A DNA stretch of 64,000 nucleotides from Escherichia coli (GTDB lineage: Bacteria > Pseudomonadota > Gammaproteobacteria > Enterobacterales > Enterobacteriaceae): the NCBI RefSeq assembly GCF_011045215.1, contig NZ_CP049201.1; one strand, given 5' to 3'. Position 1 is the first letter of the stretch; the number at the start of each line of letters is the position of its first letter. The translations under genes were made by a program, and so were the position numbers. Below the pieces are notes generated by a model, which worked only from the letters and a program-made list of their open reading frames with translations, made no database searches and was not told the DNA's origin. This document shows, piece after piece, positions 1-3,531 of this stretch.

Positions 1-558
1 GATAAAACCCCATCCTTCCACCAGAGAATTACCAAGAGCATCAACAGAGTGTTTTTTGCTTGAGGATTTCATCAAAAAAAGCAGTCCTGTTTTGTGCAGG
101 AATACGCGATACAAGTAACCATTACCCAGTGCAGGCAACAGGGAAAAAATTCCACTAAAGATTTGCCCACCAGCCACAAATGCAGCATTGTTGGCGATGC
201 ATTCAGGTTTGATTTGCCGTAATACCCACTGGCGACCCTCTGCGGTCGCCTTTGTTTTATCCAGAACGAAACCAGACATCAGATTGATCAGCACCGGACG
301 ACCAGAAAAAATCGTATCAGTCGCGCCACCAGCAAAATTTTTTGCTTTCCGGACAGCGTGGCCAACGATATTTTGCAGCAAAATATTCTGCATTTCTGGC
401 GTGCTGTAGTAACGGTGATCAGCGCCTTCACATTGAACGAACTTGTCGCTAAAATTCACCCACATAGCAAACATCGCGGTGCTGTAGGTAATTCGTTCAC
501 AAAGGCGCTCCGGCAACGGGGCGCTTTTTCTTTTTGTAACGGTCAGAGCGTTACACAT
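1..558 (-). CDS. Hypothetical island protein, N-terminal 186 codons only; ORF runs off the left window edge
   Basis: Hand translation of the minus strand from ATG at 558..556 is open to position 1 (MCNALTVTKRKSAPLPERL...). Its start overlaps the stop of the upstream AntA-like gene (ATGTGTAA), suggesting translational coupling. Not in the ORF track because no stop lies in the window. Function unknown. Confidence 0.5.
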   Translation of the reverse strand, partial: MCNALTVTKRKSAPLPERLCERITYSTAMFAMWVNFSDKFVQCEGADHRYYSTPEMQNILLQNIVGHAVRKAKNFAGGATDTIFSGRPVLINLMSGFVLDKTKATAEGRQWVLRQIKPECIANNAAFVAGGQIFSGIFSLLPALGNGYLYRVFLHKTGLLFLMKSSSKKHSVDALGNSLVEGWGFI

Positions 559-1351
559 GGCTGTTTTCCTCCATGCGACGGGCTAACCAACGCTGCGAAA
601 GACGAATTAATTCAGCTTTCCGCTGGTGGTAGTCCTGGCCTAACTCAATCAGCGTGATATTGCTCTGCTCAAGGTAAGAAAGGTGCTCAAGCTGCAATGT
701 GCTCATGTGGTCGCGTGGTTCGCCTGTGATGTCGTTCGCCTGCGCCCACTGTTTTGCAGTCATGCCACCCAGCACGATACGCGCCAGCATGTTCGCTTCC
801 GTGGTGTAGTGGTGCTGTAGAGTGTTTTTACCCAGTTCAGCCCGGTACGCCTCCAGCGCGGCACACATTGGCTTAAAGTAGCTGGCAACGGTGATACGGG
901 CTTTTACCTCACGGCGTAACGCTGCGGAACGAACAGGCGCAACCTTGTGTAGCTCCTCCTCGCATTTGATAAAGTACTGGCGAACGGCGCGGCCCTGTTC
1001 GGTACGTTCGACCATCGCCAGTTCTTTCGCCATGTTGATAGTGCTCAGGTAGTCGTGCTCTACACGTTGGCGAGATTTTGCGCTCACCGGATTGGGGGAG
1101 GTCAAATTTTCTACGAATTCAAAATCCACGCCCTTTTTAAATCCGTACTCATCAATGCGTCCTTTAATCCAGGTTGTGAAATCACGCTTCACACCCAGCG
1201 CCTTATGCAACGCTCTGGCGCTAACAATATTGGTTTCACGCCCGCCAATAACACCGGAAATAACCGGGATAATATCGCCGAAATTTTGCAGATTCTGGTT
1301 TTCAGGCCGAACGAAGCCCTGCCCCTGTACGGGCATATATCCAGTCTTCAT
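551..1351 (-). CDS. Phage antirepressor-like protein, AntA-family N-terminal domain, C-terminal half unassigned
   Basis: 266-aa ORF. Residues ~40-130 (NIVSARALHKALGVKRDFTTWIKGRIDEYGFKKGVDFEF ... MAKELAMVERTEQGRAVRQYFIKCEE) match the conserved AntA antirepressor motif pattern as I recall it. Lies in the integrase/AlpA module. Confidence 0.65.
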   Translation of the reverse strand: MKTGYMPVQGQGFVRPENQNLQNFGDIIPVISGVIGGRETNIVSARALHKALGVKRDFTTWIKGRIDEYGFKKGVDFEFVENLTSPNPVSAKSRQRVEHDYLSTINMAKELAMVERTEQGRAVRQYFIKCEEELHKVAPVRSAALRREVKARITVASYFKPMCAALEAYRAELGKNTLQHHYTTEANMLARIVLGGMTAKQWAQANDITGEPRDHMSTLQLEHLSYLEQSNITLIELGQDYHQRKAELIRLSQRWLARRMEENSHV

Positions 1352-1403
1352 GGTTAAATCTCTGTATTAGTGGATGAGTGGCGGTTGTGTGCCGCCAGTC
1401 TGA

Positions 1404-1592
1404 TTAGTGAACTGCCTCGCGGCTGTCCTTCCATGCCAGAACTTCGGATAAAGACCAGCCAACGGAACGACCACCGAGTTTACGCCGTGATGGGAATTGT
1501 CCGGCTTTTTCCAGGCGGTAGCGGCATGAACGGCTCAGGCCTGTAAGTTGCTGACATTCTTTTTCACGTATAAAGCGATCTGTGCTTAACAC
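1404..1592 (-). CDS. AlpA-family phage transcriptional regulator (small HTH protein)
   Basis: 62-aa ORF MLSTDRFIREKECQQLTGLSRSCRYRLEKAGQFPSRRKLGGRSVGWSLSEVLAWKDSR: typical AlpA pattern (LTGLSRS.iYRL...G.FP....LGGRSV.W...EV..W). Immediately downstream of the integrase on the same strand. Confidence 0.8.
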   Translation of the reverse strand: MLSTDRFIREKECQQLTGLSRSCRYRLEKAGQFPSRRKLGGRSVGWSLSEVLAWKDSREAVH

Positions 1593-1878
1593 AATTCCCC
1601 CTTTGTTGTTTCTTAAAGAGTCATTGGGTGGATTATTGGGTTGGGTTAAGTCGGATTGTGTCAGGGTGTTTATGGAATGGCAAACACTGGTGGCGGTCGT
1701 TTTACAGAAGTGGGGTAATGAGAATAAAAAGTCTTTTAATTCATTGTGATGCAGTAGCGTAAAATTCTGTTTTTACGCCTTTTTTGCATGTTTTTAAGAG
1801 TGATCCGTCAATGTATAAAAGAACAGTAATATTATTAAAATCAAATAGTTATCAATTGTGTGTTTTTTAGTCCGTTAT

Positions 1879-1918
1879 TCCTTGTTGTAGCTTATTGTTC
1901 CTTGTTGTAGCTTATTGT
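1879..1918. repeat. Perfect 20-bp tandem direct repeat x2 (TCCTTGTTGTAGCTTATTGT) in the AT-rich int-alpA intergenic region
   Basis: Read directly from the sequence: 1879-1898 and 1899-1918 are identical. Confidence 0.85.
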
Positions 1919-1955
1919 TTCACGTTGTGTACGCCCTGAAAAACCACGAAAAAAA

Positions 1956-3203
1956 TTATATTTCTCTGGCTATTGGCAGTGTGGTTACGTTTTCGTGAGC
2001 ACCTGCCAATATCTCTAATCGCTCTGTCCACATATCCAGCGCATTACGTTTTGCGTCGAGATAACGGGAATGATTATAGACTCGTTGCATCCCTGGCATC
2101 TGGTGAGCGGTGAGTTGTTCGACAATATGCGGATCCACGCCTAAATCGTTCAGCATCGTTGTAAACGTGCGCCGTATATCATGTAGTGACCAGTGCGGAT
2201 GGTTTAATTTTTTGTGTATGAATCTGCCGTATTGCGACACGCTGGCTTCCTGTTTCAGTTCTCCAAGTAATAGCCCTGTGTGCCTGTGCTGCTCCACCAG
2301 CTGCGTGACGAACGGTAAAATGCTTTCCGGTATTGGCCTGAATATGGCGACCTTCGTTTTGCTGTGTTCCTTCGGTACAGTCCAGAGCATTTCCTTAAAA
2401 TCCCACTCCCTGATCTCCGACAGCCTCAGTTCTCCGGTTCGGCAGCCAAACACAATCAGGAGGCGGATTAGTGCGCTGTAGTAGGGCGGGAATATTTTTT
2501 TATCCAGCGCCTGTAATAACTCGCCCAGCTCTTTGTTACTCAGCACACGTTCGCTTATACCCGGCTTTTTACCAACGTCCACCACGTTGAGATCATCCAG
2601 AACGTTACTGACAGCGTAGCGACGTTTACGGCAGAACTTAAGCGCCTGTTTACACGCCTGCATCATGTGACCAGACGTTACGGGGGATTTTTTGCGTATC
2701 TGGTCAAAACAGGCGAGCCAGTGACGTAACTCGCATTTATCCAGTGGCATATTGCCGATGTGCTGTATGATGTGATTATTAAGGCGACTTTTTAGCGATT
2801 CGTAATCAACACGGTTTTCCCTTACGTGCATTTCTAACCAGTAGCTGATCGCATCGCCCACCGTTACCGGCTTTAGTGCTTCCTGTATTGAGTAATTAAG
2901 CTCATGGCGTGGATTTTTTCCCTCAGCCAGCCATGCACGACACTGTGCCGCCTTTCCCCTGGCTGCTTTCAGACTCAGATCCGGATAATTTCCCAGCTTC
3001 AGGCGTTCCGGTGATACCTGGCGTCCAGTTCCTGCCCTGTAGGTGAAATACCAGGTTAACAAGCCGCTGGTGGAGTGCCTGATACTCAGGTTTCCACCGT
3101 CATTAAGAAAGGTTGTTTTTGGGGCTGGTGTGTCGTTGATTTTTCTTAGCTGTGTATCGCTCAGTTTGTTAAGTACCCTGCTCATAATTTTGAATCCGGT
3201 CAT
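1956..3203 (-). CDS. int: Tyrosine recombinase / integrase, P4-like family
   Basis: 415-416 aa ORF (ATG at 3203..3201, or GTG at 3206). N-terminus LSDTQLRK...GGNLSIRHSTSGLLTWYFTYR resembles the arm-binding N-domain of P4-type integrases; C-terminal region (HDIRRTFTT...VYNHSRYL) carries tyrosine-recombinase catalytic-type motifs. Abuts the comM disruption point. Confidence 0.85.
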   Translation of the reverse strand: MTGFKIMSRVLNKLSDTQLRKINDTPAPKTTFLNDGGNLSIRHSTSGLLTWYFTYRAGTGRQVSPERLKLGNYPDLSLKAARGKAAQCRAWLAEGKNPRHELNYSIQEALKPVTVGDAISYWLEMHVRENRVDYESLKSRLNNHIIQHIGNMPLDKCELRHWLACFDQIRKKSPVTSGHMMQACKQALKFCRKRRYAVSNVLDDLNVVDVGKKPGISERVLSNKELGELLQALDKKIFPPYYSALIRLLIVFGCRTGELRLSEIREWDFKEMLWTVPKEHSKTKVAIFRPIPESILPFVTQLVEQHRHTGLLLGELKQEASVSQYGRFIHKKLNHPHWSLHDIRRTFTTMLNDLGVDPHIVEQLTAHQMPGMQRVYNHSRYLDAKRNALDMWTERLEILAGAHENVTTLPIAREI

Positions 3204-3207
3204 CACA

Positions 3208-3231
3208 ATTAACTACACCATTAACTACACC
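3208..3231. repeat. 12-bp tandem direct repeat x2 (ATTAACTACACC) just upstream of the integrase start
   Basis: Read directly: 3208-3219 and 3220-3231 are identical. A further 22 nt downstream lies GGAACAACCTGGAACAAGG, sharing an AACAAGG/CCTTGTT core with the 1879-1918 repeat in inverted orientation. Confidence 0.8.
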
Positions 3232-3351
3232 GATCATTGCACAAGGGGGTACAGCGTGGAACAACCTGGAACAAGGAAAATTGAAATATACTTAAAAATC
3301 AAAATGATAATGAACAACGTGGCACATTATGAAGCAGTAAAAAACGCTAAG

Positions 3352-3531
3352 TTATAAAAATCCGCTATTGATAATGGCGCTGCGCACGCGATCGCGAGCT
3401 TCTTTTACCGTTGTTTCTGGTAAGCCCACCATCGTTAAGCCGGGTAGACCTTTACTGATATGTACCTCAACAGTGATTGGGGGCGCATTTACTCCCAGGG
3501 CTGCGCGGGTATGAACAATTGACAGTGACAT
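3352..3531 (-). pseudogene. comM: comM (yifB) 5' fragment, truncated by the island insertion
   Basis: MSLSIVHTRAALGVNAPPITVEVHISKGLPGLTMVGLPETTVKEARDRVRSAIINSGF matches the ComM/YifB N-terminus, then the frame stops after one more codon. Full-length ComM is ~500 aa. Junction inferred near 3355-3360. Confidence 0.8.

Follow-up and report, generated by a model that had tools for sequence, protein, structure and literature searches.

We analysed a window of 64,000 nt from Escherichia coli contig NZ_CP049201.1 (assembly GCF_011045215.1), and our results indicate that it starts inside a phage satellite that has split the chromosomal gene comM (yifB). Positions 1-3359 are very probably the integrase-proximal end of a Gram-negative satellite of the phage-inducible chromosomal island (PICI) class, ~12-15 kb long in sibling islands. 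We filed the element in this class because it matches the published PICI definition as well as the gene order of the satellite EcCIMP1. The satellite cargo, possibly with an anti-phage gene, lies on another contig and, since comM is split, the strain is therefore without functional comM. The features of the integration and regulation end are listed here by window position and strand.

3352-3531, minus strand: 5' fragment of comM (yifB), codons 1-57, then F-L-stop from island DNA.
3360-3375, no strand: att core (attR), the island/chromosome junction, 16 bp, ATCCGCTATTGATAAT.
3208-3274, no strand: probable arm-type integrase sites, ATTAACTACACC twice at 3208-3231 and TGGAACAA twice at 3257-3274.
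1956-3185, minus strand: tyrosine integrase gene (int), 409 aa, intact; ORF span 1956-3206, ATG at 3185.
1593-1955, no strand: int-alpA intergenic region, with a 20-nt tandem direct repeat at 1875-1914.
1404-1592, minus strand: alpA-family regulator/excisionase gene, 62 aa; PHROG 2790, Pfam Phage_AlpA.
551-1351, minus strand: AntA/AntB-family antirepressor gene (antA), 266 aa; PHROG 5817/377, Pfam AntA.

The interruption of comM was located by model matches and by alignment. The open reading frame (ORF) at 3352-3561 on the minus strand matched the NCBIfam YifB/ComM models at profile positions 1-58 only; the native start of comM is 3531, and the frame past Gly57 reads F-L-stop, giving the truncated end ...INSGFL*. 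Siblings carry the same fragment annotated as 'magnesium chelatase domain-containing protein, missing C-terminus'. An initial annotation of this DNA, made from its letters, had put the right end of an island inside comM and proposed alignment to an uninterrupted locus as a check; when window 3111-3610 was aligned to island-free E. coli genomes, including K-12, the alignment began at base 3360, which upholds the claim and fixes the breakpoint. Joining the left flank of the complete sibling island L001 (ETEC4077) to the window from 3360 onward reconstructs attB as an unbroken ComM frame (...RSAIINSGYEYPAKK...), and the insertion point is therefore after codon 57, within the N-terminal ChlI domain. 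The initial annotation would have given way had the module been fixed at this site in relatives; of 5426 complete E. coli genomes, 5397 have the reconstructed attB unbroken and no island there, and the int-end comM junction was found in one piece in 8. Together with the island-free alignment, these counts therefore indicate that the feature is real, rare, and an insertion. The G+C content is 0.46-0.47 over window 1-4000 versus ~0.53 for the remaining window.

The left junction of the source strain was not recovered: the identical Logan contig stops 1119 bp left of the window, and a look-up of the comM 3' product returned one unrelated metagenome contig only. The att repeat and the 3' part of comM, which had been suggested as marks of a second junction, were both seen in complete sibling islands. 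At the far comM junction of one of them (L125, 11386-12789), the 3' part of comM was called as a 467-aa ORF with its first ~18 codons from island DNA, and an N-terminally truncated ComM might therefore still be made.

All four co-directional minus-strand ORFs that had been noted at the comM break were present in the ORF list, and three of them have named functions. The integrase matched PHROG 1 (integrase, E=7e-72), and the identical protein of a public contig carries the Pfam domains Arm-DNA-bind_3 and Phage_integrase. The gene had first been placed at 1956-3203; the gene itself stands, but annotated and called homologues support the ATG at 3185 as its start. Its description as a P4-type integrase holds for the domain architecture and not for kinship, since domain architecture is all that it has in common with P4 Int, to which it is 24% identical over 318 aa. 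Within the phage collection the closest integrase, at 49% identity, came from vB_KppS-Ant, which is cfPICI-like (cfPICI, capsid-forming PICI). The assignments of AlpA and the AntA-like protein were borne out by PHROG 2790 ('excisionase and transcriptional regulator', E=7e-18) and PHROG 5817/377 (anti-repressor Ant, E=4e-39), respectively, and by Pfam Phage_AlpA and AntA matches on the identical public-contig proteins. Siblings are annotated with an antA/AntB antirepressor, and in some of them a Phage_pRha gene replaces antA. The tandem repeat at 1875-1914 reads TT[A/G]TTCCTTGTTGTAGCTTA twice (repeat family D1); the int-alpA intergenic region may be the alpA promoter and the repeat its operator.

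Published core components of PICIs are an integrase, an alpA-type regulator, a primase-replicase, a capsid-morphogenesis gene and a small terminase (TerS), with a regulation module that holds an alpA, merR or stl homologue (PMC10085698). The window has the integrase at one end, alpA adjoining int and on the same strand, and a specific att site, whereas the far-end direct repeat and a size of 11.7-15.4 kb, against the ~10-15 kb given for PICIs, were measured in siblings. The PICI-like nature that had been proposed for the island is thus supported by the int/alpA module together with complete PICI and cfPICI siblings.

With regard to integration, both junctions could be read in L001: the direct repeat has the sequence ATCCGCTATTGATAAT beside int and ATCCGCTATTTATAAT at the opposite junction. 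The far-junction core differs from the window core by one mismatch (ATCCGCTATTTATAAT) in L001 and L003, and by two in L125; in generalised form, with the last base variable, the core would read ATCCGCTATTTATAA(T/C). The att core lies 175 bp from the integrase gene. Sibling islands have both tandem motif pairs of 3208-3274 at their other end too, 75-140 bp inward of the core, and these are probable arm-type sites to which the integrase would bind. They are comparable to the annotated tandem 12-nt arm repeats that flank the core on both sides in P4 attP.

Many of the closest matches to the window's island end sit between smrA and abgR and not in comM. In these islands the far-end repeat copy reads TCACGATATTTATAAT and the int-end copy TCACGATATTAATAAT (core positions 6550 and 21199 in L002; 2288 and 14030 in L022), and the integrases of the comM and smrA/abgR islands are 93-97% identical, the range found also when the window integrase is compared with those of complete islands at either site. 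Two distinct integrase specificities were considered and rejected, since the integrase comparison found no residue that separates comM-type from abgR-type proteins; one integrase type with two sites is preferred. The far-end core copy always carries ...TATTTATAAT, which implies one attP recombining with two similar attB sequences, and a direct comparison of the comM and smrA/abgR sites gave 21/31 identical positions around the core. By the same junction test in complete genomes, the abgR junction was counted 68 times versus 8 for comM (~eight times more for the intergenic site). comM therefore looks like a less used, gene-disrupting alternative, that is, a secondary target of this integrase type. 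This documents one type of satellite integrase with two similar targets, a harmless one between smrA and abgR and one that disrupts comM.

The same imbalance (8 versus 68 junctions) could be read as the mark of a stranded, immobile remnant, left by a single off-target integration into comM and since deprived of excision or packaging. The one position at which the comM core differs from the attP-derived copy would fit this, as would the fact that only part of the element is in view. Nonetheless, we consider a remnant unlikely, given that int, alpA and antA are full-length intact ORFs identical to proteins on other contigs, and that comM islands carry several cargos at 91-99% identities, which implies repeated independent integrations and not one inherited relic.

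The complete sibling islands (11.7-15.4 kb, direct repeat at both ends) give the best view of what a PICI-class satellite of this kind holds to the left of the window. Three islands in comM were read complete (L001, L003 and L005/L125). L001 spans 14,713 bp between the repeat copies and is flanked by a comM 3' pseudogene on one side and by the same comM 5' fragment on the other; its front genes are int, alpA, antA, Icd-like genes, DUF4222 and a RepA-type helicase, followed by ProQ/FinO, PerC, a NUDIX-annotated protein, DUF2213, a 680-aa lytic transglycosylase and small ORFs. L005/L125 (metagenome contig NODE_3432) measures about 13.6 kb and agrees with window 284-3461 at 99.3% identity; it has a D5-type primase, and its late module is that of L001. 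The islands L002, L021 and L022 (11.7-14.6 kb) are located at smrA/abgR. Every complete sibling has a primase/helicase (RepA-type helicase or D5-type primase), and the replication protein gave strong primase/helicase PHROG matches. Matches were weak for the DUF2213 protein (head-maturation protease, E=5e-5) and for a 175-aa protein (TerS, E=1.6e-7), and the lytic transglycosylase matched PHROGs of phage tail/injection and head proteins. The annotations of the complete siblings include no sid, delta, psu, relaxase or transposase gene.

L003 (TUM9757), at 15,355 bp in comM, has an int and alpA front as in L001, and continues past alpA with SSB, PerC, major capsid, prohead protease, portal, connector, HNH, TerS and TerL genes. 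This gene set is that of a cfPICI, and the integration module is thus common to PICI and cfPICI cargos. It raises the alternative that the left part of our element likewise encodes its own capsid, portal, protease and terminase, and would take only tails from a helper. The L003 integrase is 96.6% identical to that of the window with the same att core, the nearest integrase in the phage collection is from a cfPICI-like element, and integrase-proximal halves are reported to be common to PICI and cfPICI (PMC10085698). On the other hand, L003 has no antA and matches the window from 1206 onward only, plus short pieces, and the DNA just left of the window points elsewhere. The Logan contig L006/L009, 100% identical to window 1-4100, reaches 1119 bp further left and adds two small opposite-strand genes, one of them for a 99-aa ribbon-helix-helix (RHH) protein of the YlcI/YnfO family, and then the start of an Icd-like gene. 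The 99-aa protein occurs in 317 index blocks, and in all 10 places shown with this gene as look-up key, the common core was RHH genes, Icd-like, DUF4222, primase/helicase, ProQ and PerC, continuing with a 57-aa ORF, a 192-194-aa ORF, DUF2213 and the 175-aa ORF. No capsid genes were present in these 10 places, where the left flank leads into the DUF2213/TerS-like module, and a cfPICI is rather improbable. Across the 10 places, the RHH-keyed core was joined to several different integrases and chromosomal sites.

A further alternative is an integrative mobilisable element, moved by conjugation and not by phage particles. The ProQ/FinO-family protein of the siblings and the 690-aa lytic transglycosylase of some of them would suit this, as both functions are also found on conjugative plasmids. 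We consider it very improbable. Annotation of the complete siblings shows no relaxase, oriT-type gene or coupling protein, and the PHROGs matched by the transglycosylase are those of phage tail/injection and head proteins; the mobilised satellite EcCIMP1 likewise has a lytic transglycosylase beside a phage DNA-ejection protein, and the order int, alpA, Icd, primase is that of a satellite.

The att-distal slot of the siblings, between the last conserved gene and the far junction, is variable in content. Known or candidate defence genes occur there: a bSEFIR protein (PADLOC, E=3e-98), a PDC-M04 A/B pair (E=7e-98 for A and 1e-73 for B), a CoiA-type nuclease or a SocA_Panacea pair, in slots at 792-2231 in L021, 835-2027 in L019, 1406-2452 in L014 and 1563-2485 in L020. 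By analogy with known satellite behaviour, it is reasonable to expect accessory or defence cargo in the island.

Taken together, we propose the following course for a PICI-class satellite. The tyrosine integrase would have recombined attP (core ...TATTTATAAT) with the similar 16 bp in comM codons 53-58, which would have split comM and left the core at 3360-3375. Int would catalyse integration as well as excision, AlpA would act as helper-responsive activator and excision factor, and AntA as antirepressor; a helper phage would presumably induce the island, which would then be excised and packaged. Behind antA, a translationally coupled long frame would run left over a control region, with opposite-strand RHH regulator genes and a predicted antisense small RNA, and end Icd/Kil-like before the replication genes. 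Translation of this frame may protect read-through transcription from Rho-dependent termination, as eta does in P4; that the frame is mostly kept open in related loci without amino-acid constraint gives this indirect support. The left part would be sibling-like, with RHH regulators, icd-like, DUF4222, primase/helicase, ProQ/FinO, PerC, protease/scaffold-like and TerS-like genes and a variable accessory slot at the far junction.

Several points weigh against this assignment. The sole island genes with named functions in the window are int, alpA and antA; neither the window nor the 1.1-kb extension shows a primase, and any primase and packaging genes of this copy would lie further left. Cargo of two types or more, PICI-like and cfPICI, goes with one integrase module, and the left part could differ. 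No helper phage was identified, and induction, excision and packaging are presumed. Moreover, the TerS-like and protease-like labels of the siblings rest on weak matches (E=1.6e-7 and 5e-5). The element is real, and its class of mobile element is common and described; current views of satellites are unchanged, and the sole lead of wider interest is the long frame together with the predicted antisense RNA and the embedded RHH genes. The features of this control region that lie in the window are as follows.

1-558, minus strand: P4-eta-like read-through frame, first 186 codons, which begins on the antA stop and runs off the window.
427-538, plus strand: candidate cis-antisense small RNA of ~75 nt, with a promoter-like site at 427-455, a predicted start near 462 and a terminator at 501-538.
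231-260, plus strand: intrinsic terminator, GGCGACC-CTCTGC-GGTCGCC then TTTGTTTTAT, which faces the rightward RHH-gene transcript.

The initial annotation had listed the long frame as an unknown ORF that starts at 558 and runs off the window. The open frame is confirmed, but it does not behave as an ordinary gene. Its ATG (558-556) overlaps the antA stop by 8 nt (ATGTGTAA at 551-558) with GGAGG 8 nt upstream, an overlap that suggests translational coupling to antA. On the identical Logan contig, the frame stays open for 559 codons to the contig end (L009 12628-14304), passes antisense through both RHH genes, and ends ...IWRFIALSTA, where an Icd-like domain starts. In each fetched sibling locus where it does not run off the contig, the frame was open from its start on the antA (or pRha) stop through the whole Icd-like gene, over 283, 358, 413, 433 or 597-598 codons; its length was 258-598 codons in loci with the start codon of the window, and 216-795 when counted from the hairpin in all variants. 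In a scan of IMG/VR by a 21-nt hairpin core, a choice blind to the frame, 100 stretches matched; of the 94 complete cases among these loci, 76 had a frame that ran on to the Icd-like C-terminus, in dozens of lengths.

We found no Pfam, PHROG or NCBIfam match for the 186 codons in the window. Long homologues matched phage_ICD_like (E=3e-19), and versions of 283-324 aa are labelled 'Icd-like' or 'ash family' by NCBI, with the model match in the last 48 residues only; Pfam gave no match to the Phage_ASH domain in the window part or in a 283-aa homologue. Constraint on the frame was evaluated in motif-anchored ungapped blocks, with the Icd part as control. These blocks replaced both an earlier pN/pS and periodicity test on 11 loci, which was suggestive, and a 73-sequence alignment that was saturated and uninformative. 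In the upstream blocks, changes were even across codon positions (23/23/26, 5/4/6 and 16/20/14), with synonymous versus non-synonymous changes of 13 versus 27, 2 versus 8 and 4 versus 21. The Icd part of the same frame showed 8/13/34 across codon positions, and 29 synonymous versus 16 non-synonymous changes. Despite the mostly non-synonymous change, no stops were present in the sampled upstream sequences. Judged by these substitution patterns, the upstream part of the long frame evolves without amino-acid constraint, and not as a protein. An ordinary protein gene was rejected on these grounds, as the 'unknown ORF' has neither a family match nor codon periodicity, unlike the Icd part. By analogy with P4, the long frame is best read as an eta-like read-through frame, putatively regulatory, and not as an unknown protein gene.

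Late transcripts of P4 pass the immunity terminator when eta is translated (PMC10111431). P4 Eta is a 199-codon frame that starts on the stop of ORF88, an alpA homologue, which resembles the start-on-stop arrangement in the window, and its residues 146-193 match phage_ICD_like (E=1e-20), the same C-terminal domain as in frames of the window type. By our own reading, the nested P4 kil gene lies in this C-terminal Icd-like stretch of Eta. The differences are also clear. The window-type frame has no Phage_ASH domain and no detectable C4/CI RNA, is laid over oppositely oriented RHH genes, and is coupled to antA or pRha and not to alpA, and sid, delta and psu are absent from the complete siblings. 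These differences bear on the possibility of a strict P4-like satellite that remodels P2-type capsids via Sid, Delta and Psu. The P4-type domain architecture of the integrase, the arm repeats, the order of alpA and then an Eta/Kil-like frame, and the D5/alpha-type primase of some siblings all recall P4. A strict P4-like satellite is nevertheless extremely improbable, with no homologue of psu, delta or sid among the annotated or called genes of the complete siblings, an integrase only 24% identical to P4 Int, and a long frame that differs from Eta as described.

The candidate antisense RNA was predicted from a promoter and terminator scan. The plus strand of the region under the frame (region X) has two strong intrinsic terminators (231-260 and 501-538) and one good promoter-like site (427-455), and the stretch from this promoter to the second terminator is the most variable part of region X. 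This stretch occurs in at least three alleles, and all three examined keep a -10 element (TAAAAT, TATAAT or TGATATAAT) and a terminator ~65 nt downstream; their bodies differ, and each folds as a 5' stem-loop plus terminator (fold z-score of the window allele, -2.4). The prediction is an RNA of ~75 nt, antisense to codons ~7-35 of the long frame. The terminator at 231-260 lies inside a block that is nearly invariant across siblings, and YlcI/YnfO-type genes lie upstream of it on the plus strand, just left of the window. It is located ~350 nt beyond the last called RHH gene, a gap partly filled by an uncalled 60-codon ATG ORF (L009 13068-13250, minus strand there).

Rfam searches returned no known RNA family for window 1-3400 and only sub-threshold SymR-like and ctRNA-like matches for the left extension, with no C4 match even at E<=1. 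The SymR-antitoxin-like match (L009 13989-14061, minus strand; ~0.8 kb left of the window) scored 37 bits against a gathering threshold of 61 (E=1e-4), and is positioned in the divergent region between an RHH gene and the Icd-like gene.

It is conceivable, although on balance we doubt it, that the control region (window 1-558 plus ~1 kb to the left) is a new variant of the 'translate to read through' switch of P4 eta and P1 icd. In such a switch, selection would act on a frame several hundred codons long only to keep it free of stops and ending in Icd/Kil; the frame would cross opposite RHH repressor genes, and a hypervariable cis-antisense small RNA would act as the gate at its 5' end. The same RNA would also determine the immunity or incompatibility type of satellites that share a host.

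Beyond the island, the window is ordinary E. coli backbone. The comM fragment adjoins ilvL, ilvX and ilvG, the last as an intact 548-aa ORF (4122-5768, plus strand), which is ordinary for wild E. coli; in K-12, ilvG is frameshifted. A low-G+C stretch at 54-58 kb was examined and proved to be backbone as well, the uvrD-corA-rarD region.

When compared with known systems, neither the target gene nor the element class is new. The initial annotation took an integrase-mediated island in comM as little described, but the TIGER survey had already listed yifB among the genes whose integrity is switched by integrative elements, and its supplement holds many comM islands (PMC7192596). One of these, Salmonella Typhi prophage ST35, is in the same ...AIINSGYE... 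codons; it differs in that it is a complete prophage, ~34 kb long, and in its core, and its junction is a few bases away. comM was named nowhere in the literature searched as an E. coli PICI site. In Acinetobacter, comM is inactivated by Tn7-like AbaR islands and other elements, for which the proposed reason is that loss of ComM lowers the ability of the host to delete mobile elements by transformation (PMC11472951). As stated in the initial annotation, these islands come by transposons. AbaR/AbGRI islands share the target gene but are Tn7-like transposons in the Mg-chelatase domain. Our element has a tyrosine integrase and a direct-repeat core, without tniA/B/C or an insertion in the Mg-chelatase domain, and no transposase was found in the window's island end or in siblings.

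The novelty suggested for the element likewise did not hold, as it belongs to described PICI/cfPICI satellites (PMC10085698; PMC11773190). Like Gram-negative PICIs (EcCI elements such as EcCICFT073), it has int at one end followed by a co-directional alpA, and its PICI-like siblings have a primase/helicase and a small packaging/capsid-interference module in 11.7-14.7 kb, with no lysis or tail genes. It is unlike them in its att site inside a disrupted gene, comM, and in the AntA antirepressor and eta-like frame that follow alpA ahead of the replication genes; in the siblings, the packaging module (DUF2213/protease-like and 175-aa TerS-like) has only weak similarity to named families. P4-like satellites, for their part, include psu-delta-sid among their components (PMC10085698).

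EcCIMP1, a PICI of E. coli MP1 experimentally mobilised by phage Kapi1 (PMC11773190), has the same order as some siblings: int, alpA, AntA/AntB antirepressor, DUF4222, Ash/Icd-like and primase, and then at some distance PerC and a lytic transglycosylase. It differs in its integrase, which shares no more than 24% identity and targets tRNA-Thr, in a TOPRIM/DUF927 primase and in P22-type ejection-protein genes. In EcCIMP1 (L013), the block at 13481-18649 is annotated as phage DNA-ejection protein, lytic transglycosylase and DUF2824. Considering this block and the different 690-aa transglycosylase of some comM siblings, satellites of this group may provide proteins for ejection or for the interior of the virion. 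The TUM9757 cfPICI resembles our element in its integrase type, its comM att core, and a front half of alpA, Icd, DUF4222 and RepA-helicase, and PICI and cfPICI are reported to have a front half in common (PMC10085698). cfPICIs differ by their capsid, portal, protease, HNH and terminase genes, whereas the flank of the window copy points to a non-capsid module.

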